From a virus (Duplodnaviria; Heunggongvirae; Uroviricota; Caudoviricetes), in the IMG/VR virus record IMGVR_UViG_2778261163_000001: a stretch of 18,618 bases of DNA; one strand, written 5' to 3'. The notes beneath the pieces were generated by a model. It searched no databases and was not told the DNA's origin. It saw only the letters and a list, made by a program, of their open reading frames with translations. The first letter of the stretch is position 1; the number at the start of each line of letters is the position of its first letter. Positions 3,901 to 18,618 of the stretch are shown here, piece by piece. The position numbers and the translations under genes were made by a program.

Positions 3901-4138
3901 ATTCAGAATAGCGTCGACCGACAGTATCAATTGCGGCACCAACTGGATCAATAGCTGCTTTTAATTTTGCGAGCGCGTTCTTCTCATCTTCTGTTGCCTT
4001 AGTCACTTTCCCTGCGCTATTTGCAGCAGTTTCCCCAGCCTGCGTCATTTTGACTAATGAGGAGGTCAGATTGTCAGCATTATTTTTCGCTCCAGTGCTA
4101 TCAATAATTATTGCGAGACGCGAGGTTTGCTCTGCCAT
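905..4138 (-). CDS. tail tape measure protein
   Basis: 1077-aa ORF, ATG at 4138 with AGGAG upstream. Highly alpha-helical, Ala/Gln/Glu-rich N-terminal half with three degenerate ~60-70 aa repeats ([15 protein letters not shown]... / [15 protein letters not shown]... / [15 protein letters not shown]...); Gly-rich C-terminus. Sits immediately downstream of the frameshifted chaperone pair, as in siphovirus tail modules. Confidence 0.9.
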
Positions 4139-4151
4139 TTATTAAAACTCC

Positions 4152-4182
4152 TGACAACAAAAAACCCACCGCGAAGTGGGTT
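4152..4182 (-). terminator. putative intrinsic terminator in the chaperone/tape-measure intergenic gap
   Basis: On the minus strand: AACCCAC-TTCGCG-GTGGGTT hairpin followed by TTTTTTGTTGT. The plus-strand reading has no U-tract, so it is oriented for minus-strand transcription. Confidence 0.45.
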
Positions 4183-4303
4183 TCAGGCGACATAATAGTA
4201 GATATAGCGATTACGAGGCCACGCAATGCTTTTCTCCAGGAGCATCATCGATTTAATTAAAGACACCATCACATCTCTGTAACAGAGTGTACGTAATTAA
4301 CAA

Positions 4304-5073: not shown

Positions 5074-5121
5074 TCAATGCGTCCCCCTGTAGGGCAGTAC
5101 CACAGGAGGAATAACGGAAAA

Positions 5122-6084
5122 TCAACTAATCGCCTCAGCACTGGCTTTTGCGATCACGGCAGCCGGGGAATTTTTTTTTCTGGTTATCGTAGGTGCTTCA
5201 TCTGCTGCGGTAATGCTCAATTGAACCTGGATAATGTCGCTATTACCCCCATCAGGCCATTCACCTGACACCTGAACCTTCGGGAAACTGAAAGTGTATG
5301 CCCCCTCTCCATTCGAAAGCGTGAAGCTGAACGGAACTGTTTCTCCAGTCAGTGTTTTACTCCAGATTTCCCACGCGGCTTTAGACCATGAAAGCGTCAC
5401 CGTACCGGACGGTGTAAAAGTAGTCGGAATATTTGCTCCTGCATAAGGCGAGCCAGTCCCGATACAACGCTGTGTCTGGAGTTTGTTATCGAACTGAATA
5501 TCAAAACTGTCGATACAAAAACCGTTACCTCCGGCAACACCATTCAGGCTTACTGCTGAAACCTCCTTAAACGAATAACGTAGCTTTCCTGCACTATCCA
5601 CAGGTTCGCCTTTGATAAAATTCGTATCATCGGCCTTTGATTCCCAGTCCAGTCCGGCAAAGGTTACGGTCGCTGTAATATCGCCGTCGTTAGGGATCTG
5701 CATTTTCCATGAGCCAACCTGCGCTCCTCTGACGACAGAGGCAATTCCGACATCGGACGCATAGGTCGCCAGAGAAAATGTTATTCGCTCATTCCCCATT
5801 GTCAGAGAATCGCCTGACCATTCCGCGCCGAAACAGGATGCAAGAAAATCATCATGTTGACCCCAGCGAAATTTGGTACCAACATCACCGCCGACATCCA
5901 CAGTGCCAGGCGTCGCCCCCTGAGCCATCCGGGAGCCACCAATCTCATTATTTTCGCCTTTATTCTGGGTGGGTTTTACTCCCCAGCTTGTGCGTTTTAA
6001 TAAACTCCAGTCACCACTTGCTGGCGTAGTGCCTGCAACCGTCTCCCGGATAAATGCCGAGATAACCTTTGCACCTGAACTCAC
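5122..6084 (-). CDS. major tail (tube) protein
   Basis: 320-aa ORF with GTG start at 6084 preceded by AGGAGG at 5-nt spacing. Gly/Thr/Ser-rich, beta-rich-looking sequence. Assigned by position between the head-tail joining genes and the chaperone/tape-measure genes; no specific family recognised. Confidence 0.65.
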   Translation of the reverse strand: MSSGAKVISAFIRETVAGTTPASGDWSLLKRTSWGVKPTQNKGENNEIGGSRMAQGATPGTVDVGGDVGTKFRWGQHDDFLASCFGAEWSGDSLTMGNERITFSLATYASDVGIASVVRGAQVGSWKMQIPNDGDITATVTFAGLDWESKADDTNFIKGEPVDSAGKLRYSFKEVSAVSLNGVAGGNGFCIDSFDIQFDNKLQTQRCIGTGSPYAGANIPTTFTPSGTVTLSWSKAAWEIWSKTLTGETVPFSFTLSNGEGAYTFSFPKVQVSGEWPDGGNSDIIQVQLSITAADEAPTITRKKNSPAAVIAKASAEAIS

Positions 6085-6110
6085 AGGAGCCTCCTATGTC
6101 ATTAATTGCG

Positions 6111-6503
6111 CTAGAGCGCGCGATATGGAATTTGAAGATTAAGCTGGAACCAGCCATTCTTTTCGCCAACGGCTATTGAGGAAACAGCCTGGTAACTGAG
6201 ACGATCGTCATCCTGAAACTCAAACAGTTCCCGCAATTTATCGGCTGTCTCAGTAATGAGTTTTGAACCAGAACCTGCGGGGACAAATAACTGAATAATG
6301 ATTATCCCCGTGCGATAAACAACCGGCCCCGCGCCAATTTCATTAACTCCAGCCTGCCCGGGAATATTACTTAACCGCGCCCAGATTAACTTACCGGAAG
6401 GATCGAACGTTGGCCCGTTCGGATACAATACATCTTTTCCATCAATAATCGTCTGTGCCGTCATTCTGGAAATAACCGTATTTCTGATTTCAGTAAACTT
6501 CAT
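6111..6503 (-). CDS. tail terminator / tail completion protein (by position, lambda gpU-like)
   Basis: 130-aa ORF immediately upstream of the major tail gene; its start overlaps the preceding gene (ATGA). Confidence 0.5.
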   Translation of the reverse strand: MKFTEIRNTVISRMTAQTIIDGKDVLYPNGPTFDPSGKLIWARLSNIPGQAGVNEIGAGPVVYRTGIIIIQLFVPAGSGSKLITETADKLRELFEFQDDDRLSYQAVSSIAVGEKNGWFQLNLQIPYRAL

Positions 6504-6880
6504 TTGTAAGCCTGTAAAACACCATGAAAAGCGTTGGCATACACTCCAGTTGGCGCTTGTTGTGAATGACCGTTTTCAAGAGCCTCTGCATAAGGAAGGT
6601 TATTCTGGATATAAATAACCCCGTAATTTGCAGCTTTCGAAATAACCCCGATCCCACGCTGAACAGCAATCGTACCGTTCGGATCCACGTTATCAGATAT
6701 ACCAAAATCGGGATGCTGTAACGACACCAGGTTGTTATTTCTGAAACGTCCGGTATCAACCGGAGCAGCAATATCAATAGCAGTAAGAATCTGCATAGCG
6801 ATGTAGCGAATCTTCAGCCCTACATCTTCCTCAATCATCCCGGCAAATATTGACGGTTCTATATCCCATGCCTTTGCCAT
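6500..6880 (-). CDS. tail component / head-tail joining protein (HK97 gp10-like by position)
   Basis: 126-aa ORF, tightly packed in the run of four small genes between capsid and major tail. Confidence 0.5.
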   Translation of the reverse strand: MAKAWDIEPSIFAGMIEEDVGLKIRYIAMQILTAIDIAAPVDTGRFRNNNLVSLQHPDFGISDNVDPNGTIAVQRGIGVISKAANYGVIYIQNNLPYAEALENGHSQQAPTGVYANAFHGVLQAYK

Positions 6881-7264
6881 TTACGCTCTCCTTAACTGGA
6901 TAGAGTAAACTGATGCGGAAGGATCTACACTTGCTGTAATTACCTCGTATCGTTGTAACTGCCTTGATACAGGATCATAAATCTCAATAATATGGTCGAC
7001 AGCTGGTTTATCCGTAACCTCGCATACCAGAGCGGTTAATTTAAGGTCACCATGCAAAATATTAATCCCATCAATTCTGCCCAGCTTATAACGTGTCAAC
7101 ACGCCTCGCCCGGTATAGATTGCGGTGGATTCGCCGCCAGTTTCCGTCACAGGATCCCAGTGCCGGTGCGTAACGTAAGAACCAGAAAAATCACTCACGG
7201 CGTCCGCTAAATCCTCATCAAAAGCAGCGGCAACCTCTGACTGAATCTCTTCACGAAGCCCCAT
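6881..7264 (-). CDS. head-tail joining protein (head closure / stopper by position)
   Basis: 127-aa ORF; abuts the upstream gene with a 1-nt overlap and is contiguous with the next. Confidence 0.5.
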   Translation of the reverse strand: MGLREEIQSEVAAAFDEDLADAVSDFSGSYVTHRHWDPVTETGGESTAIYTGRGVLTRYKLGRIDGINILHGDLKLTALVCEVTDKPAVDHIIEIYDPVSRQLQRYEVITASVDPSASVYSIQLRRA

Positions 7265-7659
7265 TATCCCCCCCTCACAACCCTGACTTGTGAGCGACTA
7301 AGTCCGTACGGTTTCAGCAGTGCTATCGCAAGCTGTAAATCGGGTTCAAGCAATGCAGTGCTGTTTGCTGGCAACTCAGAAAATGATTTCGATACACTGA
7401 CCCCGTCAGCCGACACGGCTTTACTGATAACAACGCCAGAATCATTTTTCTGCTGAAACAACTTACCGAATGAGGCAATTCTGGCTGCATATGCTCCCGC
7501 AAGTTTTACCTCTTCCGGAATACGGGATGGGTTAATTTTCAGGTTGAAGCCATTAAGCCAGGCATTAGCCATTAAAACAGCTTTATTTTTAGCGTTCTCA
7601 CTCGTCCAGGCGTTCCCAAACGCATTATCAACGTCATCACAGGTCACGTAAGTGATCAT
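7264..7659 (-). CDS. head-tail connector / adaptor protein (by position)
   Basis: 131-aa ORF, ATG at 7659 preceded by AGGAG at 6-nt spacing; first of the four small head-tail genes after the capsid gene. Confidence 0.5.
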   Translation of the reverse strand: MITYVTCDDVDNAFGNAWTSENAKNKAVLMANAWLNGFNLKINPSRIPEEVKLAGAYAARIASFGKLFQQKNDSGVVISKAVSADGVSVSKSFSELPANSTALLEPDLQLAIALLKPYGLSRSQVRVVRGG

Positions 7660-7662
7660 GTG

Positions 7663-7839
7663 TTACTCCTGAGTTTTCCAGCCCATAGCCTTCCAGTTGT
7701 CAACTTCATCAGGATGAACATTAGCGATAGTTGGTGCGCCGGGAAACATCTGATAATCGGTCACCATAACCACTAACTCAATTTGCGTTTTTTGTGCGGC
7801 TTCACGCTGTGCTCTTTGCTCTTTAGTTAATCCGGCCAT
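7663..7839 (-). CDS. small hypothetical protein (58 aa), not in the ORF track
   Basis: Found by my own translation: ATG at 7839..7837 to TAA at 7665..7663, giving MAGLTKEQRAQREAAQKTQIELVVMVTDYQMFPGAPTIANVHPDEVDNWKAMGWKTQE. Preceded by a G-rich stretch; its 3' end carries the AGGAG Shine-Dalgarno of the next gene and stops 3 nt before that gene's ATG. Confidence 0.4.
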   Translation of the reverse strand: MAGLTKEQRAQREAAQKTQIELVVMVTDYQMFPGAPTIANVHPDEVDNWKAMGWKTQE

Positions 7840-7848
7840 ATGCCCCCC

Positions 7849-7871
7849 ATTAAAAATGGGGCCGAAGCCCC
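7849..7871 (-). terminator. putative intrinsic terminator just downstream of the major capsid gene
   Basis: Minus strand, 20 nt after the capsid TAA: GGGGC-UUCG-GCCCC hairpin (5-bp GC stem, UUCG tetraloop) followed by AUUUUUAAU. Confidence 0.5.
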
Positions 7872-7881
7872 GTTTGAATGT

Positions 7882-9021
7882 TTAACCAAGAATCAGACAA
7901 CCATGTGCCGGCTTCACTGATGAAACACCCCATGCCAGTCCAACTTCATAGCGCACCTGGCGATACTGACGATACAGTGCAATCTGGAACGTAATCCCTG
8001 AAATCGGGTCCGTAACATTCATTACATCATCAGCATTATCGCCACCTTCCGGCATTGCCGGAGTACGGGATGCCAGCAGAAACGCGTTGCGATCAAACGC
8101 CATATTTGCAGTAAAGGCCCCAACAACTGTGATGGCAGTATCATCGGCCAGATCCTGACGCAGTCCGGGCGCTGCAAGAGTAATCAGATTGCTGGTCGCT
8201 GCTGCCACAACATACTGATTCGGATCACCAGCGAACGTAACAATCTGACCTGCAGAAATACTCCCCGAACCAGTATCAATGGAAATAAGAACATCGCCTT
8301 CTTTTTTCTCTCCATTCACGAGATAACCAGTTGCAGCAACCTTTGGCGCTCGTTTCACACCTGCCGAACTGTGAATATTGAATCCCTCCAGACGCCCCAA
8401 CACGCCCTCACGCAGTAGCTGTTCAGTGCCGGATTCATTCACTTTAAACAATACAGACTGTTTTCCGCGCAAATTAGCAATGGCAGTGGAGCCAAGCACC
8501 ATCTGCAGATCGGTTGTCGGTGCGCCGTTATCCTCCAGAACCTGACGAGCCAGAGCAGCATCAGAAAGATCATCTTTAACACCAAACGGCGTTGTCCCTG
8601 CGGTTCCCACGGCGCGGGAAGCACCGAAATACAACGCACCAAGATCAGCCTCAACCTCGTTTGCAAGGGCGCGAAAAGCCTGCTTGAACTGATCAGCCAG
8701 AATGGTGTTGTAAGTCCCTGAAGGGCCAAGAGCCAGTTGTTCTTCACCATTCCATTTAACCGGTGCCATTTTGGATTTAGTAATTTTTACATCAACAGTG
8801 CCAATATTTTGATCACCGGTATTCGGAGCTGACGGCCCCGGTACGATATCTTCGGTTTTCGCCTCAGGCGCAACTGGCGCGGTTACCGTCTGATCTTTTG
8901 CTGCGGCGTCAGCTTTTGCGTTTTTTGCTACCGCAGGGATAAAACCTACCTGCTCACGGGATACAACATCCAGGGCGGTATAAATAGTCGGGATCAACCC
9001 GGTCAGGGTATTTCCAGCCAT
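7882..9021 (-). CDS. major capsid protein
   Basis: ORF downstream of the scaffold gene and upstream of the head-tail genes. The track start (9114) is a TTG extension; the likely start is ATG at 9021 (MAGNTLTGLIPTIYTALDV..., 379 aa). Followed by a terminator-like hairpin, as is common after capsid genes. Confidence 0.7.
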   Translation of the reverse strand: MAGNTLTGLIPTIYTALDVVSREQVGFIPAVAKNAKADAAAKDQTVTAPVAPEAKTEDIVPGPSAPNTGDQNIGTVDVKITKSKMAPVKWNGEEQLALGPSGTYNTILADQFKQAFRALANEVEADLGALYFGASRAVGTAGTTPFGVKDDLSDAALARQVLEDNGAPTTDLQMVLGSTAIANLRGKQSVLFKVNESGTEQLLREGVLGRLEGFNIHSSAGVKRAPKVAATGYLVNGEKKEGDVLISIDTGSGSISAGQIVTFAGDPNQYVVAAATSNLITLAAPGLRQDLADDTAITVVGAFTANMAFDRNAFLLASRTPAMPEGGDNADDVMNVTDPISGITFQIALYRQYRQVRYEVGLAWGVSSVKPAHGCLILG

Positions 9022-9119
9022 AATTAAATATTCCTTAAAAATTTGCGTAATTGTGAATAGATGGAGTAATGAGCTATCCAGCCCTGACACCAGCTCCCAT
9101 CCGGAAGCTGACAAATGTG

Positions 9120-9884
9120 TTAATCAACGATTGTGATACCGTCTTTCAATGCGTTTTGCTTACCTGCAACATCCAGTGCATCAAAAGCAGAGCGTTTCAT
9201 CGTTTTCTGACCAATATCATGCTGTGTCGGACGGGAGCCGCCGCCATTGTTGCCACTGGCTTTCAGGATGTAGTCTTTCTGAGGGTAATTTTCGACAAGG
9301 AACTCCAGCGCCTCATCAAACTGCGCCAGTTCGCCAGGCTTCGCGCGGGAATAAATTTTGTTGCCGGAAGCGTCATAAGCAACGATCCTCCCTTCTTCCA
9401 CTTTGAATGCCTGCCCGAAGCGGGCTTGTAATAAATCTGCCGGGATCGCAATTTTATCGGCAATATATTTTGAACCCGCAAAACTACCGCCAATCATAGA
9501 ATCGTAAAGCTGCTTCTCCAGCATCTGAGAGCGTTGCTTTTCTTCATCTAATTGCTGCTGAAAATTTTTCGTAATTTCTGCCTTAACCTGGTCAACCTGT
9601 CCCGCATCGAGCAGCTTTTTCTGGTCGATTTTTGACAGCATTTCCAGTGCCTCGATCGCCTTCTTCGGGTCTTCGATAGCGGCAAACTTAGCCAGTTTTT
9701 CCTCTGCAGCTTCTTTAGCCAGGCGATGATTTTTTGCCTCGCCATTAAGCTCTGTAATTTTTTTTGTCGCCAGCGGTGCATCGAAGCCAATTTCTTTACC
9801 ATCGTCGTGCACATAAACTGGCAGGCCAGCAGTATCAATTTCTGCGTATTGTTTTCCGTTAATCTCGACCGTTTTCAGTTTCAT
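9120..9884 (-). CDS. scaffolding protein (putative)
   Basis: Likely start ATG at 9884 (MKLKTVEINGKQYAEIDTAGL..., 254 aa; the track ORF is extended upstream). Charged, helical-looking middle region (AKEAAEEKLAKFAAIEDPKKAIEALEMLSKIDQKKL...QQQLDEEKQRSQMLEKQL). Position between the minor head protein and the major capsid gene. Confidence 0.55.
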   Translation of the reverse strand: MKLKTVEINGKQYAEIDTAGLPVYVHDDGKEIGFDAPLATKKITELNGEAKNHRLAKEAAEEKLAKFAAIEDPKKAIEALEMLSKIDQKKLLDAGQVDQVKAEITKNFQQQLDEEKQRSQMLEKQLYDSMIGGSFAGSKYIADKIAIPADLLQARFGQAFKVEEGRIVAYDASGNKIYSRAKPGELAQFDEALEFLVENYPQKDYILKASGNNGGGSRPTQHDIGQKTMKRSAFDALDVAGKQNALKDGITIVD

Positions 9885-9941
9885 ATTAGTACCTGGTTTA
9901 AGTCTTCCGACAGTTACGCTGCTCACCATCCGGATCGCAGC

Positions 9942-9969
9942 AATAAAAAAGGCCACCCGAAGGTAGCCT
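9942..9969 (-). terminator. putative intrinsic terminator between the minor head and scaffold genes
   Basis: Minus strand: AGGCUACC-UUCG-GGUGGCCU (8-bp stem with one G-U pair, UUCG loop) followed by UUUUUAUUG, starting about 20 nt after the minor head protein stop. Confidence 0.5.
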
Positions 9970-9988
9970 GTTGTAATAAATGATTTAT

Positions 9989-11104
9989 TTAAATCCCTGC
10001 TTTTCTGAATACCTGTGCATCACGCTCACGGAGCTGCTTCAGCGTCAGCCATTCGCCTTTATCGGTGTAAAATTCATCTGGCGACATACCACCATCCCGA
10101 ATCAGCTTTGCTCGGGTTTCCCCCACAATCTGTTTTTGTCTGGTGTAAGGCTGACGCAAAAACCATTCCCTGTAGGTTGTATCTCCGGCCACCACGCCAT
10201 CCATGCTGGCCCGCTCAGCCGGGGAAATATCGCGAACATCAATACCCAGTTCCTTCGCTGATTTCAGAATGAACGTTTCCGTTGAGCGGCAGCAGAAATG
10301 AATTTTTCCCGGCCCCTGCAAATAAGGCACGCTGTGACCTATAGGTTTATTATTCAGCGTATATTTGAGGCGATCCCTGATTCGACATTGTGGCGTAGTA
10401 CGATTATCAAGCGTTGATAACCATTGCTTACCCTTAATCAAATCATTATTCGCGCTGGCAAAACTCTCACGGGCAGTAGCAGCAAGATGTCCAACCGCTG
10501 TTTTTGCAATGCTGGCCGCATTAGCCCGGCTCATCTGCAATGCACCATCCTGAAATCCCTTACTGACATGTCCCCGAATTTTTCTTGCGATCTGCTCATT
10601 GGTATCCCCCAGCAAAAAACCCTGACGCACTGTATTTGTTATGCGTCTGAGCCGATCCGCCTCAAGATCTGAGGCCCACTCACTGAGCAGTCGTCCCTGG
10701 AATGGTCGCGCCATTGCAGCGGCATAAAGTGCATCAGGAGAGATACCAACCAGAGGGTGAACATCAGCAACAAAATCAGGTAGCATAGAATCAAACAGAC
10801 TTAACTGATAACCAGCCTCATAAATTGCCAGCTCGTTCAGCTCTCCGGAGAGACTGGTAAACATGCTGTTAATAGCAGTGCGGTTAACCTCTCTGACGCT
10901 CGCCAGAAGTGACTCCAGGCGCTTAACGGTAAAACTACCTGGATCGAGGCTGTCCAGTGCTATCAGCAGGCGAGCAGTAAGTTCCGCATCGCTGTCATTC
11001 AGTATTTTCACCATTCTGGCAGCCACGCCAGTGCTATAGCGGGATATCCAGACTGCATGAGCAATTGATTCATCACGCAGCCGTTCATTCACGGTTTGCA
11101 TCAT
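9989..11104 (-). CDS. phage head morphogenesis / minor head protein (Mu gpF / SPP1 gp7 family)
   Basis: 371-aa ORF directly downstream of the portal gene (20-nt overlap). C-terminal region ...WLSTLDNRTTPQCRIRDRLKYTLNNKPIG...GPGKIHFCCRST fits the conserved core of the Mu-F-like family as I remember it. Confidence 0.65.
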   Translation of the reverse strand: MMQTVNERLRDESIAHAVWISRYSTGVAARMVKILNDSDAELTARLLIALDSLDPGSFTVKRLESLLASVREVNRTAINSMFTSLSGELNELAIYEAGYQLSLFDSMLPDFVADVHPLVGISPDALYAAAMARPFQGRLLSEWASDLEADRLRRITNTVRQGFLLGDTNEQIARKIRGHVSKGFQDGALQMSRANAASIAKTAVGHLAATARESFASANNDLIKGKQWLSTLDNRTTPQCRIRDRLKYTLNNKPIGHSVPYLQGPGKIHFCCRSTETFILKSAKELGIDVRDISPAERASMDGVVAGDTTYREWFLRQPYTRQKQIVGETRAKLIRDGGMSPDEFYTDKGEWLTLKQLRERDAQVFRKAGI

Positions 11105-12491
11105 TGATTTCCATCAGCATTACACTCTGATTTTTTAATTCATCGATCACTTCCTCTGGACGGGAATCCTGATCGATAAATTTCAACGCCTGCAACACCC
11201 GAACCGCATCAATCTGACGTATATCACCGCCCTGACGCAATGACTGAACAGCCAGCGCGGAGGATGAGTCAAACACCTGGGCAGATACATCCAGTTCAGT
11301 GCGCACATCCACATTGCCACCGCAACTCTCTCCGATCCATTCCGCCATTATCTGGAGAATATTATCGAGGGCATCTTCGAGGGAGTTCGCCATTGTATAA
11401 AGCGGCGAGTTTTCCTGCATTCGCTCTTCATTAGTCTGATCAACAGATTTGGTGGATGTATTTTCAGCACGCAGAAGTTTAGCGCCGGCATGACGCATCT
11501 GATTTTCCAGCTTCTCAAGTGATGTTTCGCCAGATTCTATCGCTGCGCCACTATGTTCAACATATTCGAGGCCATTTTTTGTTCTGTCCTCAAAAATCGT
11601 AGCGGTGGATGCACCAACCGTCAGTTCTTCATTCCTGTCCAGCCCGTAGGCCACCAGCAATGGAACGCGGGCAACATGAAGAATATTGTCCTGCTCGCTC
11701 TGGCTTTGCCAGTGCTTGATATTCAGCAAGCCAAGATTAAGCAATGGCGGTGTACCACGCATAAATCCTGTTTTCTTCGTGTACAGTGTTACCAGAGGAA
11801 TATCATCACGGCTGGTATTCCATGACTCATGAAGCGTCCAGACAGATTCGCCATTAGTGCCTTCGCTACGTCGATAAATTTCAACTCGACGGGGCATAAT
11901 ATGGCGGATCTGCTCCACCTTCTTCTGCCCGAAATCATCACCATCAATAATGATGACCTCTTTTATACGCAAATCAGTGAGAACAACTTTCCCTTTTTCA
12001 ACTTTCGATTTCCATCCAATAACCTGGCGTGGATTCAGCATCGTAACGTACGGACGACCACCGGTCGCGTTTTCATCGGCTTTTGTCCGAATCTCTTTCA
12101 TATCCGTTCGTGGATAGTCCACCAGCGCATGTGCCACACCATACTGAAATGCGAGGCTGAAAAATTGCTGCGCCCACACATCCAGTCGGCTCCCCTCCAT
12201 GTCGATATTTTCTGCATATTCCCTGATTTTTGCCGGCGTTTCCTCACTCAATACTGTCGGCTCTGCAAATATGCGCCCAATATTTTGCTTGATGCTTTCT
12301 TCATACACAGGAAGTAGCGTAGCCACAGACAGGCGTTTTTTATAAGCGTCTTCATCTTCGTTAGGCCATTTTGGGAGATAATTTTCCCCCTGCCTGCGCA
12401 TTTCAAGCGTACCGCCCATCAGTGCGTCGTTAATATCCCACGCCTCCAGCATATCGTTATAGTCGAGGTTGGGTGTTGATATATCAGCCAT
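11085..12491 (-). CDS. portal protein
   Basis: 468-aa ORF starting 2 nt after the terS-terL pair ends (TAA-TT-ATG), between terL and the minor head protein, which is the canonical portal position. Acidic, large protein. Confidence 0.75.
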   Translation of the reverse strand: MADISTPNLDYNDMLEAWDINDALMGGTLEMRRQGENYLPKWPNEDEDAYKKRLSVATLLPVYEESIKQNIGRIFAEPTVLSEETPAKIREYAENIDMEGSRLDVWAQQFFSLAFQYGVAHALVDYPRTDMKEIRTKADENATGGRPYVTMLNPRQVIGWKSKVEKGKVVLTDLRIKEVIIIDGDDFGQKKVEQIRHIMPRRVEIYRRSEGTNGESVWTLHESWNTSRDDIPLVTLYTKKTGFMRGTPPLLNLGLLNIKHWQSQSEQDNILHVARVPLLVAYGLDRNEELTVGASTATIFEDRTKNGLEYVEHSGAAIESGETSLEKLENQMRHAGAKLLRAENTSTKSVDQTNEERMQENSPLYTMANSLEDALDNILQIMAEWIGESCGGNVDVRTELDVSAQVFDSSSALAVQSLRQGGDIRQIDAVRVLQALKFIDQDSRPEEVIDELKNQSVMLMEINDANRE

Positions 12492-12493
12492 AA

Positions 12494-13795
12494 TTAAATC
12501 CGAAGTGATGTGACTCTTCCGGTCGGTTTGACAATAGGGAATTGCTTAACGATGAAATAACCTCCGGCATCATTCGGGTGATCATTGCCAGATTTTTTAT
12601 CAGGCTCCCCCTTCTCATCCCAGACCTGTTGCTCCAGAGATTCGGCATATAACGGGCAACGCTTCACATTAACTTTATAGCGACGCTCACCATTGGCATT
12701 GCAGAACATTGCATTCATTGAGTTAACGCGATCTTTTACTGGCGGGTTCGAGCTGTTCACCACAACGTTAAAACCAGCCTGCTTAAGCTGGGCTATATCC
12801 GTCGTACTTGCGTTACTTGATTTTCTGGAATCCCCGGAAGCATCTGGATAAATATAAATTTCCCTCACTTTCCGGTAATCATTCCCATCATACAGCCAGA
12901 AGCGTTCTTTAATGATGCGGATCATATCCGGCGTATCGTAGGCATTGATGATTTCAGTTACCGCACATGGAAGCCCCAAACGCAGCACATGGACGATTCC
13001 CGCCATCTTTCCAACGTTAAAATCCATCCCAATATAAATCGGCTCCCCTGGCTGCTCCACTTCTTCGCAATTATTCAGTTTCCGGTCAAACTGATGGTAA
13101 ACAGTACCACTTGTCAGGTTAGTAAACTGTCCTCGAAGATAGGCTTTAATCAGCTCTGGAGGGTATGATTCAAGAAGCGAAGGAATGTAATCTGCTGGCA
13201 GGTTCTTTTCATTATCGAAAGTAGATGCCTGCACTAGACCATACAGTGAGGCCAGCTCTGTTTTTTCACGCACGGCTTTAACAAACTGCTCGTAGACAAA
13301 TTTGAATCCTTCCGGCGTGGTTGTAACGTCAATACCGTTGCGAAGTCCATCAATCTTATAACGCATACGTGCAATTATCTTGCGCCACGCCGTTCTGGCT
13401 TTTTCCTTCGGCAAAATGTCCAGTTCATCCACCAACGCATTACCAATTTTGAAACCGACGATCGTTTGTGGCTTCTCCATCGATCTGCAGATAGTGGTTC
13501 CCCGATACTGGCGTCCGTAATAAAAGTGAACCTCTTTATTTCCCTCATTAATTTTTACGTTCAATCCCCAGTCAGCAGCAACTTCTTCCACTGTAGGGTA
13601 AAAAATATCGCGAATTTGGGGATACGTTGGCGCAAAATATCCCTGATTTATACCTGGATGCTCCCAAATCCCCTTGCATATGCCGCCACACCCAACCCAT
13701 GTTTTGCCCGAGCCAAAACCAGCAATATAGGCTTTAAATTTATGGGGCATTGAAAGAAATCGCGCCTGAGGCACATTAAGCGTCGGAGAGATCAT
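12494..13795 (-). CDS. terL: terminase large subunit
   Basis: Walker A (YIAGFGSGKTW), Walker B-like (NALVDELD), and C-terminal nuclease-type acidic motifs (IGMDFN, YPDASGD, HPNDAGGYF). Likely start is ATG at 13795 (MISPTL..., 433 aa), 8 nt after AAGGAG; the track's 13804 start is GTG. Confidence 0.9.
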   Translation of the reverse strand: MISPTLNVPQARFLSMPHKFKAYIAGFGSGKTWVGCGGICKGIWEHPGINQGYFAPTYPQIRDIFYPTVEEVAADWGLNVKINEGNKEVHFYYGRQYRGTTICRSMEKPQTIVGFKIGNALVDELDILPKEKARTAWRKIIARMRYKIDGLRNGIDVTTTPEGFKFVYEQFVKAVREKTELASLYGLVQASTFDNEKNLPADYIPSLLESYPPELIKAYLRGQFTNLTSGTVYHQFDRKLNNCEEVEQPGEPIYIGMDFNVGKMAGIVHVLRLGLPCAVTEIINAYDTPDMIRIIKERFWLYDGNDYRKVREIYIYPDASGDSRKSSNASTTDIAQLKQAGFNVVVNSSNPPVKDRVNSMNAMFCNANGERRYKVNVKRCPLYAESLEQQVWDEKGEPDKKSGNDHPNDAGGYFIVKQFPIVKPTGRVTSLRI

Positions 13796-14870
13796 CTTCA
13801 TCACTCCTTACTCTGGCATCAACCACATTAATATTGATCGCCACAGGCTGGGGATGTTCATTATCCTCCACCGTTTCGATCTCTTTGCGCAGCTTCTGGT
13901 TTTCTATTCTGCGCCGTTCAATTTCCAGTTCCTGTAGCCGCTTATCTGCACATAATGCCCCGCCAGCAGAAAGCAAACGCAACAATTCACGCCGGGCGGC
14001 AGCCTTATCCTCCAGCAGGATCTCAACACCGTATTTTCCGAGCTTTGACCCTGCATATAATTGCCGCGCATCCCCATCAAGCAGTGTGGTATCAGCCATA
14101 TAAAGCTGTCCCGTTCCCTCACCGCAGCACTTCGGGCAATCCGGATTGGGTATGGCGTTATCAACAAAGCCGAGGCCTCCATATTCCGGCTCGGGTTTAC
14201 CATCTCTGGAGGCCTGTGCCGCAGCCTTATCGAATTCTGCAATATCACGCCACTGGTAGAGATGATTCTCGCCCCAGCAATAACGGCAGTTAACACGGCG
14301 AAATTGTGCCAACTGATTGGGGTCGGCCTGGACAATGGCCATCAACTGGCTCACCAGTAAATCCAGGTCTGCGGTATAGCGTTTCTGGTACTGATTGCGG
14401 AAGTAGCTGATAGCACGATAAACCCTGGCATTTCTAAGCATACGACTGGCGTTGCTGTTAGCTGTCGCACCTTGCCCCTCATAACCGGCTAGTCGGTACG
14501 CCTCTGTCGGCTTTTTACCCTGAGCAACAAGCATCGCAAACTTAGCCTGCTGGTCAGAAATGCCGAATTCATCGGGACAGAACGAAAATTCCTCCGCGTC
14601 GCCTTCATTCAGGCCCGCATCGAATACTGGCTTTTTTTCCTGAGATTTTTCGTTCCGCTTTTGTGCAGTCTGCGCAGATTTTTTCTGCGCACTTTTTTGC
14701 GCAGTTTTGCGCATTTCTGTCTGCGCATTTTTCGGAGTTTTTTTGATGTAACGACGGGCTGTTGCGTAATTCAGTCCCCTTGCTTCACACCATGCCACCG
14801 GAGATATACCGGAGCGGGTGTATTCAGCAATATACTCCTGCTGCAACGCCCCCCAGTCCGGTCTGCTCAT
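13776..14870 (-). CDS. terS: terminase small subunit (long form, with Cys4 cluster)
   Basis: Immediately upstream of terL and overlapping it. Central segment ...SDQQAKFAMLVAQGKKPTEAYRLAGYEGQGATANSNASRMLRNARVYRAISYF... fits the small-terminase HTH pattern. Also has an N-terminal HTH-like region, a Lys/Gln/Ala-rich linker, and a CxxC...CxxC cluster (CRYCWGENH...CPKCCGEG). Confidence 0.75.
   Translation of the reverse strand: MSRPDWGALQQEYIAEYTRSGISPVAWCEARGLNYATARRYIKKTPKNAQTEMRKTAQKSAQKKSAQTAQKRNEKSQEKKPVFDAGLNEGDAEEFSFCPDEFGISDQQAKFAMLVAQGKKPTEAYRLAGYEGQGATANSNASRMLRNARVYRAISYFRNQYQKRYTADLDLLVSQLMAIVQADPNQLAQFRRVNCRYCWGENHLYQWRDIAEFDKAAAQASRDGKPEPEYGGLGFVDNAIPNPDCPKCCGEGTGQLYMADTTLLDGDARQLYAGSKLGKYGVEILLEDKAAARRELLRLLSAGGALCADKRLQELEIERRRIENQKLRKEIETVEDNEHPQPVAININVVDARVRSDEDDLSDA
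14662..14727. repeat. phased array of palindromic TGCGCA hexamers separated by T-tracts, inside terS; candidate pac / terminase-binding site
   Basis: Five exact TGCGCA copies at 14671, 14686, 14698, 14708 and 14722, plus a TGTGCA variant at 14662, spaced 9-15 bp apart with T-runs between them. They coincide with the AQK-repeat linker of TerS. The repeat itself is read directly; the function is inference. Confidence 0.4.
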
Positions 14871-14873
14871 CAG

Positions 14874-15125
14874 TTAGTCCTGATTTTTATCCACCCTGAG
14901 TAGTTCGCGCAGAGCAAAGGCATCCCCTTTTCTGGCAAGCTTAAACAATGCCGCTCGTAACTCGGCTTCACCTTTCGCTCTGCCCTTACGGATGGCCGCA
15001 TAAAAATCTGTCATTGCTTCCCGATTTTCTTTCAGTCGGTTCAGATCAACATCCAGAACGTCAGCGATTTGTTGTGCAGTCATCCGGCACGCTGCCAGAG
15101 ACTCGACTTTCGAATACGGAATCAT
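14874..15125 (-). CDS. small helix-turn-helix protein, function unknown (possibly packaging-associated)
   Basis: 83-aa ORF, ATG at 15125 preceded by GGGGGTGA. Segment TAQQIADVLDVDLNRLKENRE looks like an HTH. Stops 3 nt before the terS start; overlaps the 3' end of the upstream glycosyltransferase-like gene by about 65 nt. Confidence 0.4.
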   Translation of the reverse strand: MIPYSKVESLAACRMTAQQIADVLDVDLNRLKENREAMTDFYAAIRKGRAKGEAELRAALFKLARKGDAFALRELLRVDKNQD

Positions 15126-15993
15126 TTGTCACCCCCATTGATATGCAGGGTGTCTTCTTCCTGTATTTTTCGTGAAGGATTTTTACTGCAGCGTTGTTCC
15201 AGGTGACCTGATGGTGAATGCGTTTATGGCTGGCACCCATCAGTGAAATTTTTACGCACGACGGCGCATACATGACGGAGTAAAAACTTTTAACGTAGGT
15301 TCCGGAATCCAGATACAGCTCGGTCATTCCGCCGCTGTTTTTCTGCGTCTGTTTCTGCCCTAACTGGACAGCACCGATCGTCATAAACAATTCACCACAG
15401 CGACCGAGATTCGTGTACGTATTCACATCCTCGTTAATGCGCCCCATGAATGAGAACGGTCGATCAACCGAACAGATAAAGCTGTTCATTGCCTTGCGTT
15501 TCACCCACGAAGCATGGCCGCCATTGTCACCAAGAAAATCCCCGCCCTGCGACATAGCGATGGAAAGAGCAGGTATTGATTCGTAGTACGCCAGCATTTC
15601 AGAAAGGATCGCATCCAGTTTCCTTATCGGAAAATAGGCCTGGTCATAGTTGCGATCCACCCGAAACTGGAACTCGTGATAATCATCATCGAGCTGAATG
15701 AAGTATTTACACCCGACCAGTTTTGCCAGGTCGAAACAGGCATTACGGGCGTAAAAAATTGAGCGGCGGTCACAGAAATTATCGGCTTCGTCAAAACGAC
15801 TGGCGATATCGGTTTTGGAAAACACCAGCACCTGTTCACCAAATTCAGCCATGTACTGATGCCGTGTCTTATCTTCATCATCAACAACGATAAAAATTTT
15901 CCCGGTATAGCCAGCACGACGCAACGTTCGGTAAGTCAGAACTTTGTCCGGTCGCCCGTGAGTCAGAATAAAGGCGCAAAAATCATCACGCAT
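15061..15993 (-). CDS. GT-A-fold (GT2-like) glycosyltransferase-like protein, soluble
   Basis: Likely start ATG at 15993, 5 nt after GAGGAGGAGG (310 aa; the track start at 16014 lacks an SD). Motif layout typical of nucleotide-sugar GT-A enzymes: N-terminal strand AFILTHGR, acidic pair after strand 2 (KIFIVVDDED), and a DxD motif in the context ARNACFDLAKLVGCKYFIQLDDDYHEF. No obvious hydrophobic membrane segments. Confidence 0.5.
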   Translation of the reverse strand: MRDDFCAFILTHGRPDKVLTYRTLRRAGYTGKIFIVVDDEDKTRHQYMAEFGEQVLVFSKTDIASRFDEADNFCDRRSIFYARNACFDLAKLVGCKYFIQLDDDYHEFQFRVDRNYDQAYFPIRKLDAILSEMLAYYESIPALSIAMSQGGDFLGDNGGHASWVKRKAMNSFICSVDRPFSFMGRINEDVNTYTNLGRCGELFMTIGAVQLGQKQTQKNSGGMTELYLDSGTYVKSFYSVMYAPSCVKISLMGASHKRIHHQVTWNNAAVKILHEKYRKKTPCISMGVTNDSVFESRVSGSVPDDCTTNR

Positions 15994-16777
15994 ATTCCTC
16001 CTCCTCACCACCATGCATGATCTCCACCATGCGCTGCGTCATCCGGACAAATCCATTTTCAATAGCCTGCTGATAATCAATGATCACCAGCGCCGACTCC
16101 TCGAAAAAACACTGAATTTCAGCGGGGGCGTGAGCGTAATAGTCCGCAATTCTGCTGAAATTAAACACCGTGTGACGTTCTGCCGCACACAGGAGGAATT
16201 TCTCAATATCAGGCTCAAGGGAAGCCGAACGTATCCGGCTGATCAGCTCCTGCGTTTTCGTATCGTCGTACAGTTCACTGATATCCGGTTTACCGCCCGA
16301 CGGCTCATAAACAGGCGTATCAATTTTCGTCGTATACGGCTCCTCCTCATTTCCTGTACCGGGCAAAACATCCGTCAACAGTTCATCAATTTCTGTCGGG
16401 ATGAAGCCTGTCAGGGAGACATCAAAATCAGCATTGATTAGGTCCGACAGCTCCATCCGCAACAGATCTTCATCCCAGCCAGCATTCATCGGCAGGCGAT
16501 TATCTGCCAGGCGGTACGCCTTTTTCTGCTCATCCGTCAGGCCAGACAGAACAATGACCGGAACAGAATCCATTTTGAGCATTTCAGCCGCCATAACACG
16601 ACCGTGACCCGCAATAATTTCGCCCTTTTCGTCAATCAGCACCGGATTAGTCCAGCCGAATTGCTTAATACTTTCTACCAGTTGTGCCACCTGCTCAGGG
16701 CTGTGCGTCCTGGCGTTGTGCGCATACGGTGACAATTCTTGTAATGGGCGATAGACTATCTTTAATTTCTCGCTCAT
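15986..16777 (-). CDS. ParB-like nuclease domain (ParB/Srx fold) protein
   Basis: 263-aa ORF, ATG at 16777 preceded by AAGGA. N-terminal ...FGWTNPVLIDEKGEIIAGHGRVMAAEMLKMDSVPVIVL... carries the GHGR motif characteristic of ParB N-terminal / sulfiredoxin-like domains. Acidic C-terminus. Its stop overlaps the glycosyltransferase-like start (ATGCGTGA). Confidence 0.7.
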   Translation of the reverse strand: MSEKLKIVYRPLQELSPYAHNARTHSPEQVAQLVESIKQFGWTNPVLIDEKGEIIAGHGRVMAAEMLKMDSVPVIVLSGLTDEQKKAYRLADNRLPMNAGWDEDLLRMELSDLINADFDVSLTGFIPTEIDELLTDVLPGTGNEEEPYTTKIDTPVYEPSGGKPDISELYDDTKTQELISRIRSASLEPDIEKFLLCAAERHTVFNFSRIADYYAHAPAEIQCFFEESALVIIDYQQAIENGFVRMTQRMVEIMHGGEEEEYA

Positions 16778-16791
16778 ACATCCTTGCTTTA

Positions 16792-16829
16792 TGAATAAAA
16801 CGCACCCCAGCAGCCAGTGCTACTGGGGG
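16792..16829 (-). terminator. putative intrinsic terminator downstream of trkG
   Basis: Minus strand: CCCCAGUAGC-ACUG-GCUGCUGGGG (10-bp stem with one U-G pair) followed by UGCGUUUUAUU, lying between the trkG stop (16915) and the ParB-like start (16777). Confidence 0.55.
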
Positions 16830-16914
16830 CGGAGGTGTTGCTGGTAAAGTTAGGTATTGGATCAATGAGTGAGTCAACATAATATTAAACTCACAATTAT
16901 AAATCAGCCATATA

Positions 16915-18372
16915 TTAGGAGCGCCAAAAAAAACCTGAAAACAATATAATAACAGGATAAATTTCAAGGCGACCAAGAATCATAGCTATGCACATTAAAT
17001 ATTTTGCAATGTCATTAAGCACTCCGAATGACGATGCAGTAGCCCCAAAACCTAATCCCATATTATTAATACATGCAGCCACTGTTGCAAATGATGTAAG
17101 AAAATCATATCCCATACCATTTAACACCAGTATAAAAAACACCGTGAAGAGAGTATAAAGAAAAAAGAAACTCCATACAGACCTCATTACACGATCTGTA
17201 ACTATCTTCCCTCCTACATTTACACTCAACAACGCTCTGGGATGAGAAAGCTGATTTATCTCGTGTTTGCTTTGTTTGAAAAGTATAAGAAATCGAAGTG
17301 ACTTAATTCCACCACAAGTTGAACCTATACATCCCCCAAAGAAACTTGACAACAGCAAAAACACTATCGTGTGCGTGGGCCAGCTTGCATAATCCTGCGT
17401 AGCTAAACCATTATCAGTGAGCATGGAGCTGGCAAGAAAAAACGAATGAATAAAACTTCCATGCAAGTCATACATACCTATATGCCAGACCTGGAAAGAG
17501 GTAACAATGATCACCCCTAAGGCTATTAACAGAAAGAAACGAAGTTCAATATCTCTGATTAAAGGTTTTATCGTTTTCCTGCTAATAACAATATACCAAA
17601 GAGTGAAGTTGAAAGCCGATAGCAGGGAAAAAGAACCAGCCACCAGCTCAACCAAATAGTTATTAAAATATCCGATACTCTCGCTATGAGTTGAGAAACC
17701 ACCAAGCGAAACTGTGGAAATCCCGTGACAAATAGCGTCAAACAAAGGCATTCCTGCAAGTCTATAACAGACAATACAAGCAATACCTAATAAAGAATAA
17801 GTTATCCACAGTGTCCGTGACGTATCGGCCAGGCGGGGAGTGAGTTTGTCATCCTTAAATGGCCCCGGCATTTCTGACTGATAAAGCTTTGCACCACCAA
17901 TACCCAATAATGGCAATACAGCAACCGCCAGAACAATAACTCCTAAACCACCTATAAAATTTAACTGTGACCGATAGTACAAATATGCCCGAGGTAATGA
18001 ACTAACATCATCAATTACAGTTGCTCCTGTTGTTGTTATTCCAGAAACCCCTTCAAACAGAGCATCAATGAACGTTAAATTAAGTTCTGAGTCAATCCAT
18101 AAAGGGAATGCACTAATAACAGAAAACAAAATCCAAAACATTACAATTATAATAAACCCATCACGGGTACGTAATTGAATGCCAGATTTCTTAGTTGTAT
18201 ACCACGCTCCGCCACCAATACAAAAAAATATAACGAAAGTTATAAAGAAAACGAACAGGCTTTTTTCTTTATAAAACAATGCTACAACCATTGGTGGCAA
18301 CATTGAAAGACTATAGAGCCAAACCAGGAACCCACACATATGAGTAACAACTCTTACATGAGATGTATTCAT
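16915..18372 (-). CDS. trkG: Trk-system potassium uptake protein TrkG
   Basis: Polytopic membrane protein with repeated glycine-rich selectivity-filter-like segments (GVSGITTTG, LNFIGGLGVIVL, STVSLGGFSTH, NNMGLGFGA) typical of the TrkH/TrkG/KtrB family. Starting at the ATG at 18372 (MNTSHVRVV...) gives 485 aa, the length I recall for E. coli TrkG; the track start at 18390 is TTG. The region is visibly AT-rich relative to the phage structural genes, and trkG is known to reside in the Rac prophage. Confidence 0.85.
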   Translation of the reverse strand: MNTSHVRVVTHMCGFLVWLYSLSMLPPMVVALFYKEKSLFVFFITFVIFFCIGGGAWYTTKKSGIQLRTRDGFIIIVMFWILFSVISAFPLWIDSELNLTFIDALFEGVSGITTTGATVIDDVSSLPRAYLYYRSQLNFIGGLGVIVLAVAVLPLLGIGGAKLYQSEMPGPFKDDKLTPRLADTSRTLWITYSLLGIACIVCYRLAGMPLFDAICHGISTVSLGGFSTHSESIGYFNNYLVELVAGSFSLLSAFNFTLWYIVISRKTIKPLIRDIELRFFLLIALGVIIVTSFQVWHIGMYDLHGSFIHSFFLASSMLTDNGLATQDYASWPTHTIVFLLLSSFFGGCIGSTCGGIKSLRFLILFKQSKHEINQLSHPRALLSVNVGGKIVTDRVMRSVWSFFFLYTLFTVFFILVLNGMGYDFLTSFATVAACINNMGLGFGATASSFGVLNDIAKYLMCIAMILGRLEIYPVIILFSGFFWRS

Positions 18373-18390
18373 ATCTAAATATTCTTTCAA

Positions 18391-18450
18391 TTATAACCAC
18401 CTTGCTGCAATATTATGATTATACTGTATAAAATTTAACTCCTCTTAGAT
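18391..18450 (-). promoter_or_regulatory. putative trkG promoter region
   Basis: Two perfect TATAAT hexamers on the minus strand upstream of the trkG start (complement of 18390..18395 and of 18418..18423) in AT-rich sequence. No convincing -35 hexamer and no clear Shine-Dalgarno, so placement is tentative. Confidence 0.3.
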
Positions 18451-18491
18451 CTTACTTCACTGTTCCTTATGAAACAATCATCAAAATGAAT

Positions 18492-18618
18492 TGATCCTAC
18501 CCACGTAATATGGACACAGGCCTAAGCGAGGTTCTTGTTTTCAAATTGTTCCGGACTGAGGCCGCCACACCAACTGTGCCGCCGCCACCGATTGTAATCA
18601 CATTCGATATAATTAAAC
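18492..18618 (-). mobile_element. right end of an IS3-like insertion sequence (element continues beyond the window)
   Basis: TGATCCTACCCACGTAATATGGACACAGGCCTAAGCGAG at 18492 matches my recollection of the IS3 terminal inverted repeat (TGATC...TGGACAC...GGCTAAG). Immediately inside is the 3' end of a transposase-like ORF. Recognised from memory, not searched. Confidence 0.6.
18522..18618 (-). CDS. IS3-family transposase (OrfB / integrase core), C-terminal 31 codons only
   Basis: Minus-strand frame with no stop from the window edge to TAG at 18524..18522, translating ...[31 protein letters not shown]. The YN-x-x-R-x-HS...G-x-x-SP-x-x-FE pattern is characteristic of the C-terminus of DDE transposases of the IS3 family. 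Confidence 0.55.

Follow-up and report, generated by a model that had tools for sequence, protein, structure and literature searches.

The analysed DNA probably carries the K+ transporter gene trkG as cargo of a Rac-type lambdoid prophage of E. coli, together with a strain-specific copy of IS3 in the spacer upstream of the gene. The window, that is the whole stretch of 18,618 nucleotides, holds an apparently full-length phage late region, trkG itself and, at its far end, the right terminus of the insertion sequence (Table 1). The locus is one that has already been described and its IS3 variant is routine and strain-specific; earlier publications have likewise already covered the low GC content of trkG, its foreign origin, its own promoter and its partial repression by H-NS.

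The trkG gene and its place in the prophage

The product of trkG scores 414 bits against TIGR00933, the TrkH-family model (cut-off 331), and PF02386 is recorded for a protein identical to it. Against the TrkH equivalog NF008020 it reaches 451.6 bits, below the cut-off of 866, and the gene is therefore the TrkG paralogue and not TrkH. The assembly collection lists the identical protein in 3,712 blocks, and relatives in the phage collection are limited to alleles of at least 99% identity, the next matches (41%) being TrkH. Taken with its flanks over 1,968 nt (upstream spacer, coding sequence, terminator and the start of ynaK), the gene is 99.49% identical to trkG of the K-12 Rac prophage. The product serves Na+-dependent K+ uptake (PMC9898762; PMC5811629), with TrkA as its partner in the literature.

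The position of trkG is within the late operon, with the Rz/Rz1 spanin genes on one side and the ParB-like, TAGT and terminase genes on the other. In relatives without the IS, Q, holin, lysozyme and Rz/Rz1 are followed by a 137-bp spacer, trkG, a second spacer, also of 137 bp, that contains the terminator, and then ParB_N, TAGT, terS, terL and portal. Downstream of trkG the late genes begin with the ParB/Srx-like gene, for which PF02195 (ParB_N) is recorded in identical relatives while the match to TIGR00180 is weak; the annotation of the relatives is ynaK or ParB, and K-12 ynaK is a remnant of this 263-aa gene. Over the 16.8 kb downstream of trkG the late genes of the window look intact in the list of open reading frames. 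An Rfam scan of 16600..18618 returned a chance snoRNA match only (E = 0.89) and no structured RNA.

Table 1. Features of trkG and its surroundings, in window numbering
Feature	Position	Strand	Details and basis
ParB/Srx-like gene	15986..16777	-	263 aa, full-length; ORF list
Intrinsic terminator of trkG	16795..16828	-	stem 16828..16805 = CCCCAGTAGC-ACTG-GCTGCTGGGG, then TGCGTTTTAT at 16804..16795; consensus scan
Low-GC block, trkG and flanking spacers	16846..18491	.	~36-38% GC; change-point scan, window profile
trkG, TrkH-family K+ transporter subunit	16915..18372	-	ATG 18372..18370, TAA stop, 485 aa
Rz-trkG spacer	18373..18491	-	119 bp kept of native 137 bp; alignment to IS-less L005 5882..6000
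IS3 right end	18492..18618	-	IRR from 18492 (TGATCCTACCCACG...); identity to K-12 IS3A
Outward promoter-like signatures in IS3 right end	18543..18617	-	TTTAAT (18617..18612)-N15-TACAAT (18596..18591); TTGGTG (18573..18568), CAATTT (18548..18543)

A low-GC block closed by a terminator

The first-pass annotation had described trkG as an AT-rich gene whose composition contrasts with that of the phage genes, and had named windowed GC and codon usage as the check. The discontinuity is present: trkG has 38.1% GC versus 47.6% for positions 1..16777, and its GC3 is 32.5% versus a mean of 46.1% for the other 16 CDSs (z = -2.95). The upstream spacer, at 18373..18491, has 26.1% GC. A two-change-point likelihood scan of L005, an IS-less relative, delimits a block of ~1.7 kb at 5836..7527 with 36.4% versus 49.3% GC (log-likelihood gain 40). 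Its limits fall at the Rz stop, 27 bp before it, and just before the terminator, 18 bp ahead of the stem. The coordinates in Table 1 were transferred from L005 into window numbering by alignment, and in the IS-less relatives the block continues for 46 bp more upstream, into the 3' end of Rz.

The hairpin terminator that had been placed downstream of trkG was also recovered, with the stem now narrowed to 16805..16828 plus the T-tract. The stem begins 86 nt past the stop codon and consists of 10 pairs, 7 of them G-C, around a loop of 4 nt; the 130 nt of the trkG 3' region fold at -36.5 kcal/mol (z = -3.5 versus shuffles), and the terminator is conserved in K-12 and in the IS-less relatives. The opposite strand is without a T-run, and the terminator is therefore predicted to be active only in the trkG direction. 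The Shine-Dalgarno sequence and ATG of the ParB-like gene start 12-18 nt past the T-tract. Since trkG is co-directional with the late operon, late transcription must pass this terminator. During lytic growth, Q-antiterminated late transcription would run through it into ParB, terminase and the remaining late genes, and in the lysogen the terminator would shield ParB, terminase and the other late genes from transcription of trkG.

The IS3 end upstream of trkG

Alignments to IS-less genomes reach position 18491 and then end. What follows had been called an IS3-like end about 120 bp upstream of trkG and proves to be genuine IS3: 127 of 127 bases of 18492..18618 agree with K-12 IS3A, where they span 1129..1255 of the element, annotated as 1,255 bp long, and stop at its annotated right terminus. 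The terminal repeat opens with TGATCC and agrees with IRL at 28 of 40 positions. The window contains the last 31 codons of orfB/insF (...EQFENKNLA, then the TAG stop at 18524..18522), read toward trkG and ending 30 bp from the IS terminus; IRR faces trkG, and the transposase frames are co-directional with it. The point of insertion is 119 bp before the ATG of trkG and 18 bp past the Rz stop. Among 5,426 complete E. coli genomes, 3,624 contain this same 127-bp end, at 13,035 places in total.

The visible part of the IS is 127 bp exactly, which resembles a short-read contig ended in a repeat, and the far side of the IS is outside the window; the other IS end, whose recovery the first-pass annotation had proposed, is not to be found in a contig that ends here. 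Given this end of the window, it is an assumption that the IS3 is complete and was inserted in a simple way. The 3-bp target duplication expected from such an insertion is predicted to be ATT in trkG orientation (L005 5882..5884).

The segment has matches in 1,546 E. coli genomes and is uninterrupted in 1,542 of them, and the 220 bp ahead of the ATG are free of interruptions in all 98 retrieved trkG loci whose 5' end is intact. The exact junction between IS3 and spacer is absent from the complete E. coli genomes, the GTDB representatives, IMG/VR and the JGI metagenomes, and IMG/VR likewise had no match to the junction predicted for the IRL side. The IS3 insertion in the trkG spacer is private to the present strain. 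In the wider neighbourhood, within 1.46 kb upstream of trkG, IS3 points its IRR toward the gene in 25 genomes and its IRL in 21, at ~18 different sites, and there is therefore no sign of selection for a promoter-delivering orientation. Selection against IS hits in the spacer was considered and rejected: for ~18 independent sites in 1,460 bp, with a spacer of 137 bp, only ~1.7 hits are expected, and because of this the observed zero is not significant.

Promoter candidates upstream of trkG

Two TATAAT hexamers, which the first-pass annotation had listed upstream of the gene, are indeed present on the trkG strand (18423..18418 and 18395..18390), with ~0.29 expected given the composition of the spacer; an in-frame TTG lies at 18390..18388. 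PWM and consensus scans gave no recognisable -35 element for either hexamer, and the consensus scan of the DNA upstream of trkG in the window gave no promoter-like site. In the native spacer of L005 the sole consensus-like sigma-70 site is TTTAAA-N18-TATGAT (5854..5883, 9 of 12 positions, trkG strand), which overlaps the Rz stop and whose -10 hexamer is cut by IS3 between bases 4 and 5. Every match to the high-affinity H-NS motif has two mismatches, and these matches are uninformative.

In published work trkG is a gene of low GC content and foreign origin that is partially repressed by H-NS (PMC9898762); it has a constitutive RpoD promoter with a gSELEX RpoD site and was 'inserted together with its promoter' (PMC5811629). 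A 509-bp fragment from upstream of the gene drives lux, and K-12 contains trkG mRNA (PMC9898762). According to the literature, lysogens transcribe trkG from a sigma-70 promoter located somewhere within the 509 bp upstream of the ATG (PMC5811629; PMC9898762). Among the transcription-start literature, the supplementary text of Ettwiller 2016, Kim 2012, Mendoza-Vargas 2009 and Adams 2021 has no entry for trkG, and the gene is absent from the main text of Shimada 2014.

Likely effect of the insertion

The insertion leaves in place both TATAAT hexamers and ~68 bp upstream of the distal one, and trkG is most likely still driven from a proximal promoter. At the same time IS3 would put ~1.26 kb between the lysis cassette and late promoter on one side and trkG with all late genes downstream on the other. 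Among the top PWM matches and in the consensus scan, no hybrid of a -35 and a -10 element with 15-19 bp spacing spans the junction of IS and spacer. The outward motifs of the IS3 right end that are seen in the window are the same as those described by Fuqua and Wagner 2025 (PMC12095673), who chose IS ends for undetectable promoter activity. For the right end of IS3 in its wild-type form they detected no promoter activity, and the final 50 bp of this end repressed transcription, lowering expression ~1.9-fold with no effect of an hns deletion; the probability of gaining promoter activity by mutation was highest for this very end, at 0.23 (PMC12095673). The IS end of the window is identical to the wild type and is therefore without a promoter-creating mutation.

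The first-pass annotation had proposed that the IS could truncate, replace or augment the native trkG promoter, and these outcomes fare differently. An IS3 that severs trkG from its native promoter, be it the TTTAAA-N18-TATGAT site at the Rz stop or one further upstream, would make expression lower or dependent on read-through across the 1.26-kb IS. This truncation is possible, as the -10 element is split, and still unlikely. In IS-less DNA the consensus scan gave no other promoter-like site on this strand ahead of the gene, and the split site is also the top PWM candidate; it is contained in the 509-bp reporter fragment, and the spacer is uninterrupted in 1,542 complete genomes versus ~46 IS3 insertions in the adjoining lysis genes. 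However, its agreement with the consensus is 9 of 12, and 6 such sites were found in the region against 6.5 expected from shuffled DNA; its PWM score of 8.7 barely exceeds the 8.0, 7.3 and 7.1 of the candidates kept after the insertion, two perfect TATAAT hexamers lie nearer to trkG, and zero hits in the spacer do not differ significantly from the ~1.7 expected. On balance the evidence speaks against augmentation or replacement of the promoter by the IS. It is very doubtful that the right end of IS3 boosts trkG transcription or takes it over through its outward elements, through transposase read-through or by disturbing H-NS binding upstream, even though the outward signatures TTTAAT-N15-TACAAT and TTGGTG/CAATTT lie within the window, the orfB stop is only 30 bp from a terminus that points at trkG, H-NS represses the gene (PMC9898762) and the IS3 right end was the most prone to gain promoter activity by mutation. 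The wild-type end, which is the sequence of the window, had no activity that could be detected and lowers expression independently of hns (PMC12095673), no -35 of the IS pairs with a -10 of the flank at 15-19 bp, and the orientations of nearby insertions are balanced.

A further alternative, rather unlikely, is that the IS3 end forms the joint of an IS3-mediated deletion or inversion, so that the DNA beyond it is something other than Rz and the lysis cassette. The window ends before the far side of the IS comes into view, decayed variants of the locus are common, and in another relative (L002) an IS3 in Rz1 adjoins a truncated recE without target duplication, a deletion joint from which it follows that the whole Rac early region has been lost. 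Against this, L003 has in this region a simple IS3 insertion (a full 1,258-bp element in Rz with the 3-bp duplication ATA, 105 bp further upstream than that of the window), and the 16.8 kb of intact-looking late genes argue against heavy decay of the prophage; the annotation of the full IS3 copies in both L002 and L003 includes the programmed frameshift. A more far-reaching reading, highly improbable, is that IS3 has rewired an H-NS-repressed trkG, with the -10 split, the right end at -120, the gene IS3-driven or freed from H-NS, and the many IS3 insertions in the upstream 1.5 kb of other E. coli lineages forming a selected hotspot instead of neutral decay. The insertion is most likely another neutral hit in a prophage region often struck by IS3 and no regulatory innovation.

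Comparison with morons and with related prophages

A moron in the sense of Juhala and Hendrix is defined by an empty site in relatives, an own promoter active in the lysogen, a downstream terminator and deviant composition. For trkG, a factor-independent terminator directly 3' of the gene, on the trkG strand only, and a base composition unlike that of the neighbouring phage genes (GC, GC3 and change-points) were found. As regards the empty site, a 1,002-bp query in which the 5' end of ParB was joined to Rz was covered to at least 80% at no place in 5,426 E. coli genomes. The gene is carried by all relatives compared: 80 IMG/VR loci, 10 phage records, the relatives in E. ruysiae and Shigella, and 12 other E. 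coli loci in which the 5' end of trkG is intact. A search for ParB relatives in one genome per species gave, besides distant alphaproteobacterial ParB genes, only Escherichia and Shigella loci, all with trkG. As no trkG-less relative was found, the case that trkG was inserted as a unit is built on its composition and on the comparison with DLP12. The first-pass view of a self-contained moron thus holds in so far as this AT-rich cargo gene of a Rac-type prophage has a terminator of its own and an upstream spacer that is likewise rich in AT, and not as regards an empty site. The term moron itself, applied to trkG, is a relabelling of facts already known.

The bor gene is an accessory gene expressed in the lysogen. 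In DLP12, bor (borD) occupies the slot after Rz/Rz1 that holds trkG here, and the same is true of bor in lambda. The Rz gene upstream of trkG shares 91.5% identity with DLP12 rzpD, a homology that stops ~10 bp before the stop codon, after which each prophage has its own cargo gene. The two cargo genes differ in that bor is a small lipoprotein gene on the opposite strand in DLP12, whereas trkG is a 1.46-kb membrane transporter gene that points along the late operon. Closest of all is K-12 Rac, with the same gene (b1363), the same low GC content and the same place after rzpR/rzoR. However, K-12 Rac keeps only the remnants ynaK and ydaY where the window has a full-length late region (ParB of 263 aa, TAGT, terminase, portal), and its trkG spacer is uninterrupted.

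IS3 is able to activate a neighbouring gene, argE. The window resembles the IS3 'mobile promoter' systems in that the right end of IS3 faces the gene and outward motifs similar to -35 and -10 elements are present. It differs from them in that the junction is without a hybrid -35/-10 pair and the distance from the IS is 119 bp to the ATG and 68 bp to the nearest TATAAT.

Significance

Beyond annotation the locus is of little importance: trkG as a low-GC phage cargo gene damped by H-NS is textbook-level knowledge for K-12, and IS3 insertions are common in Rac-type prophages. The apparently full-length late region makes the moron-like placement of trkG easier to see than in the decayed Rac prophage of K-12. 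With the spacer intact in 1,542 other genomes, the strain that carries IS3 at this site would offer a natural experiment for locating the trkG promoter.

trkG as a cargo gene of the Rac-type late operon

The cargo gene trkG scores 414 bits against the TrkH-family model TIGR00933 (cut-off 331) and does not reach the threshold of the TrkH equivalog model, which is what the paralogue TrkG should do. The DNA between the IS junction and the beginning of the following gene matches the trkG region of the K-12 Rac prophage at 99.49% over 1,968 nt, and it shares 99.96% identity over 2,573 nt with L005, a locus of an IS-less E. coli genome. The AT-richness of trkG relative to the phage genes, noticed in the first-pass annotation, is borne out by a GC content of 38.1% against 47.6% for the phage genes (16.8 kb of the window), by a GC3 of 32.5% against a mean of 46.1% in the window's 16 other CDSs (z = -2.95), and by the 26% GC of the 119 bp preceding the ATG. 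The 38% GC, the foreign origin and the Rac location of trkG have already been published (PMC9898762, citing Schlösser 1991). Within the phage collection only alleles of at least 99% identity occur, all in Rac-like phages, and the next matches are chromosomal TrkH at 41%. An in-frame TTG (18388..18390, minus strand) lies six codons 5' of the annotated ATG and includes the final T of the proximal TATAAT; in one phage record trkG is annotated from the upstream TTG, and a ribosome-profiling study lists trkG among candidate re-annotated start sites, with an inconclusive lacZ test (PMC4909307). Elsewhere, positions 1..400 reach 59.5% GC, well above the remaining window, and belong to an ORF running off its start.

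Features of the trkG region (positions in the window)
Feature	Position	Strand	Details
IS3 right end (IRR)	18492..18618		facing trkG; 127/127 bases identical to the right end of IS3A, the annotated K-12 copy
Distal TATAAT	18423..18418	minus (trkG strand)	perfect hexamer; two such hexamers in all, against ~0.29 expected from spacer composition
Proximal TATAAT	18395..18390	minus (trkG strand)	perfect hexamer
trkG ORF	16915..18372	minus	485 codons; ATG at 18372, TAA stop
Intrinsic terminator stem	16828..16805	minus (trkG strand)	10 bp, 7 G-C pairs, 4-nt loop, then TGCGTTTTAT

Gene order in IS-less genomes and induced Rac-like phages runs from antiterminator Q through holin, lysozyme and Rz/Rz1 to a 137-bp spacer and trkG; another 137-bp spacer, which contains the terminator, then leads to a ParB_N gene, a TAGT-domain gene, both terminase subunits (small, then large) and portal. 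This order makes trkG part of the late operon, positioned directly behind the spanin genes. A two-change-point likelihood scan delimits a low-GC block at L005 5836..7527 (36.4% versus 49.3% GC), whose edges lie 27 bp before the Rz stop and 18 bp before the terminator stem. The prophage DLP12 carries an Rz gene 91.5% identical to the one beside trkG; the homology runs out about 10 bp short of the stop codon, where DLP12 continues with borD. Composition, homology break and terminator together outline a unit of 1.7 kb. The strong downstream hairpin proposed at first reading holds up as a terminator: it begins 86 nt past the trkG stop codon and is followed by a T-tract, and the trkG 3' region has a folding energy of -36.5 kcal/mol (z = -3.5 versus shuffles). 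It works in the trkG direction only, since the opposite strand has no T-run at the hairpin. The following gene begins close by, its Shine-Dalgarno sequence and its ATG (16777) being reached within 12-18 nt. A second hairpin (GUGAGUU..GACUCAC, ~16869..16894, minus strand) lies before it, 21 nt past the trkG stop.

The ParB_N gene and the TAGT-domain gene (PF20691) occupy 15061..16777 (minus strand) and separate trkG from the small terminase gene. Exactly this pair is missing from three IMG/VR loci (L104, L106 and L107), whose sequence passes from a point 10 nt inside the ParB ORF straight to the equivalent of window 15005, so the two genes behave as a separate 1.76-kb unit. In K-12 the ParB gene survives as the remnant ynaK, and ydaY matches the place of the TAGT gene by position only.

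Three of the four usual criteria for a moron hold or are supported for trkG, namely the deviating composition, the downstream intrinsic terminator and an own promoter, the last supported by literature rather than by mapping. The fourth, an empty site in a relative with the flanking genes adjacent, was sought and not found: nowhere among 5,426 complete E. coli genomes is the ParB gene joined to Rz, and trkG is present in the E. ruysiae and Shigella loci, in 80/80 IMG/VR loci and in 10/10 phage records. This leaves the label "self-contained moron" short of the comparison that defines a moron. Calling trkG a "moron-like cargo gene" is fair, though it gives a new name to published facts; the word "moron" applied to trkG was not found in the literature searched.

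The IS3 insertion and its distribution

The IS3-like terminus placed at 18492 was correctly recognized. The match stops exactly at the annotated terminus of IS3A, downstream of insF, and alignments of IS-less genomes run to base 18491 and then stop (matches H36-H40), which together identify the end as IRR, the right terminal inverted repeat. The transposase frames are co-directional with trkG, with only 30 bp separating the stop codon of orfB (18524..18522) and the terminus. The distance to the trkG ATG, estimated at about 120 bp, is 119 bp, and the insertion point lies 18 bp past the Rz stop, between L005 5881 and 5882, where the sequence predicts a 3-bp target duplication, ATT. The identical 127 bp are found 13,035 times across 3,624 of the 5,426 complete E. 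coli genomes. The usual largest k-mer in short-read assemblers is 127, exactly the length of the IS3 portion, and we infer that the window probably stops within a repeat where a contig ended, in the pattern of short-read assembly. The IS3-trkG junction is absent from complete E. coli genomes, GTDB representatives, IMG/VR and JGI metagenomes.

About 1,541 of the complete E. coli genomes carry trkG, and the segment from the Rz 3' end through the spacer to the trkG 5' end is uninterrupted in 1,542 of 1,546 matching genomes, with at least 99% identity in 1,518 records. Fifteen segment matches are on plasmid records, indicating that plasmids or phage-plasmids carry the module too. In the 1.46 kb upstream of the window's insertion point, IS3 is present with IRR facing trkG in 25 genomes (H11-H35) and with IRL, the left inverted repeat, facing it in 21 (among H117-H142, leaving out six matches with the IS in ynaK or trkG). 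These insertions are spread over about 18 different positions within Rz/Rz1 and the lysozyme gene, and the ~46 of ~1,541 genomes, a count that ignores clonal kinship, are well above the ~1 expected from average IS3 copy number. In the 137-bp spacer there are none against ~1.7 expected, which is not significant. IS3 is also seen inside trkG (H137-H139) and inside ynaK (H116, H136, H140, and locus L112). Of the upstream insertions, the one at the E. coli locus L003 is simple, lying in Rz with a 3-bp duplication, ATA. In another, at L002 (strain 2018-05-2CC, 4939..6196), IS3 joins an Rz1 remnant directly to truncated recE; the missing target duplication marks a deletion joint and implies an IS3-associated deletion of the entire Rac immunity and replication region.

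Consequences for trkG expression

K-12 contains trkG mRNA, at a higher level when hns is mutated, and lux is driven by an upstream trkG fragment, which we place as the 509 bp 5' of the K-12 ATG (PMC9898762). Both TATAAT hexamers reported upstream of trkG are present; no recognisable -35 was found for either, and a consensus scan of the window found no promoter-like site 5' of the gene. We infer, and favour, that the promoter is retained despite IS3, the insertion sparing both hexamers and 68 bp 5' of the distal one, a length that can accommodate a -35 and an UP element. That IS3 cuts trkG off from its promoter is less favoured: the -10 hexamer of TTTAAA-N18-TATGAT (L005 5854..5883), the only promoter-like site 5' of trkG on its strand in IS-less DNA, is indeed split, but this site has a consensus score of 9/12, comparable sites in the region show no excess over shuffled DNA (6 versus 6.5), and its PWM score of 8.7 is near those of retained candidates (8.0 to 7.1).

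That the IS3 end itself supplies a promoter, an option raised at first reading, is unlikely. Outward signatures of the right end are present in the window (TTTAAT-N15-TACAAT, TTGGTG/CAATTT), but no IS3-end -35 was found to pair with a -10 in the flank, and Fuqua and Wagner picked this end for showing no detectable promoter activity; its last 50 bp reduce expression ~1.9-fold, probably via a pause or Rho-dependent site, and hns deletion had no effect that they could see (PMC12095673). The absence of orientation bias among the upstream insertions also argues against selection for promoter delivery. A regulatory role of IS3 at trkG is unproven and, on present evidence, unlikely.

The initial observation is thus confirmed and its identification of the parts is right. 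Read most simply, this dispensable prophage region is a frequent landing site of IS3, and the window, whose insertion site is not seen elsewhere, records one more such event; the essentials of trkG here had been described before, the IS3 allele being a private variant.
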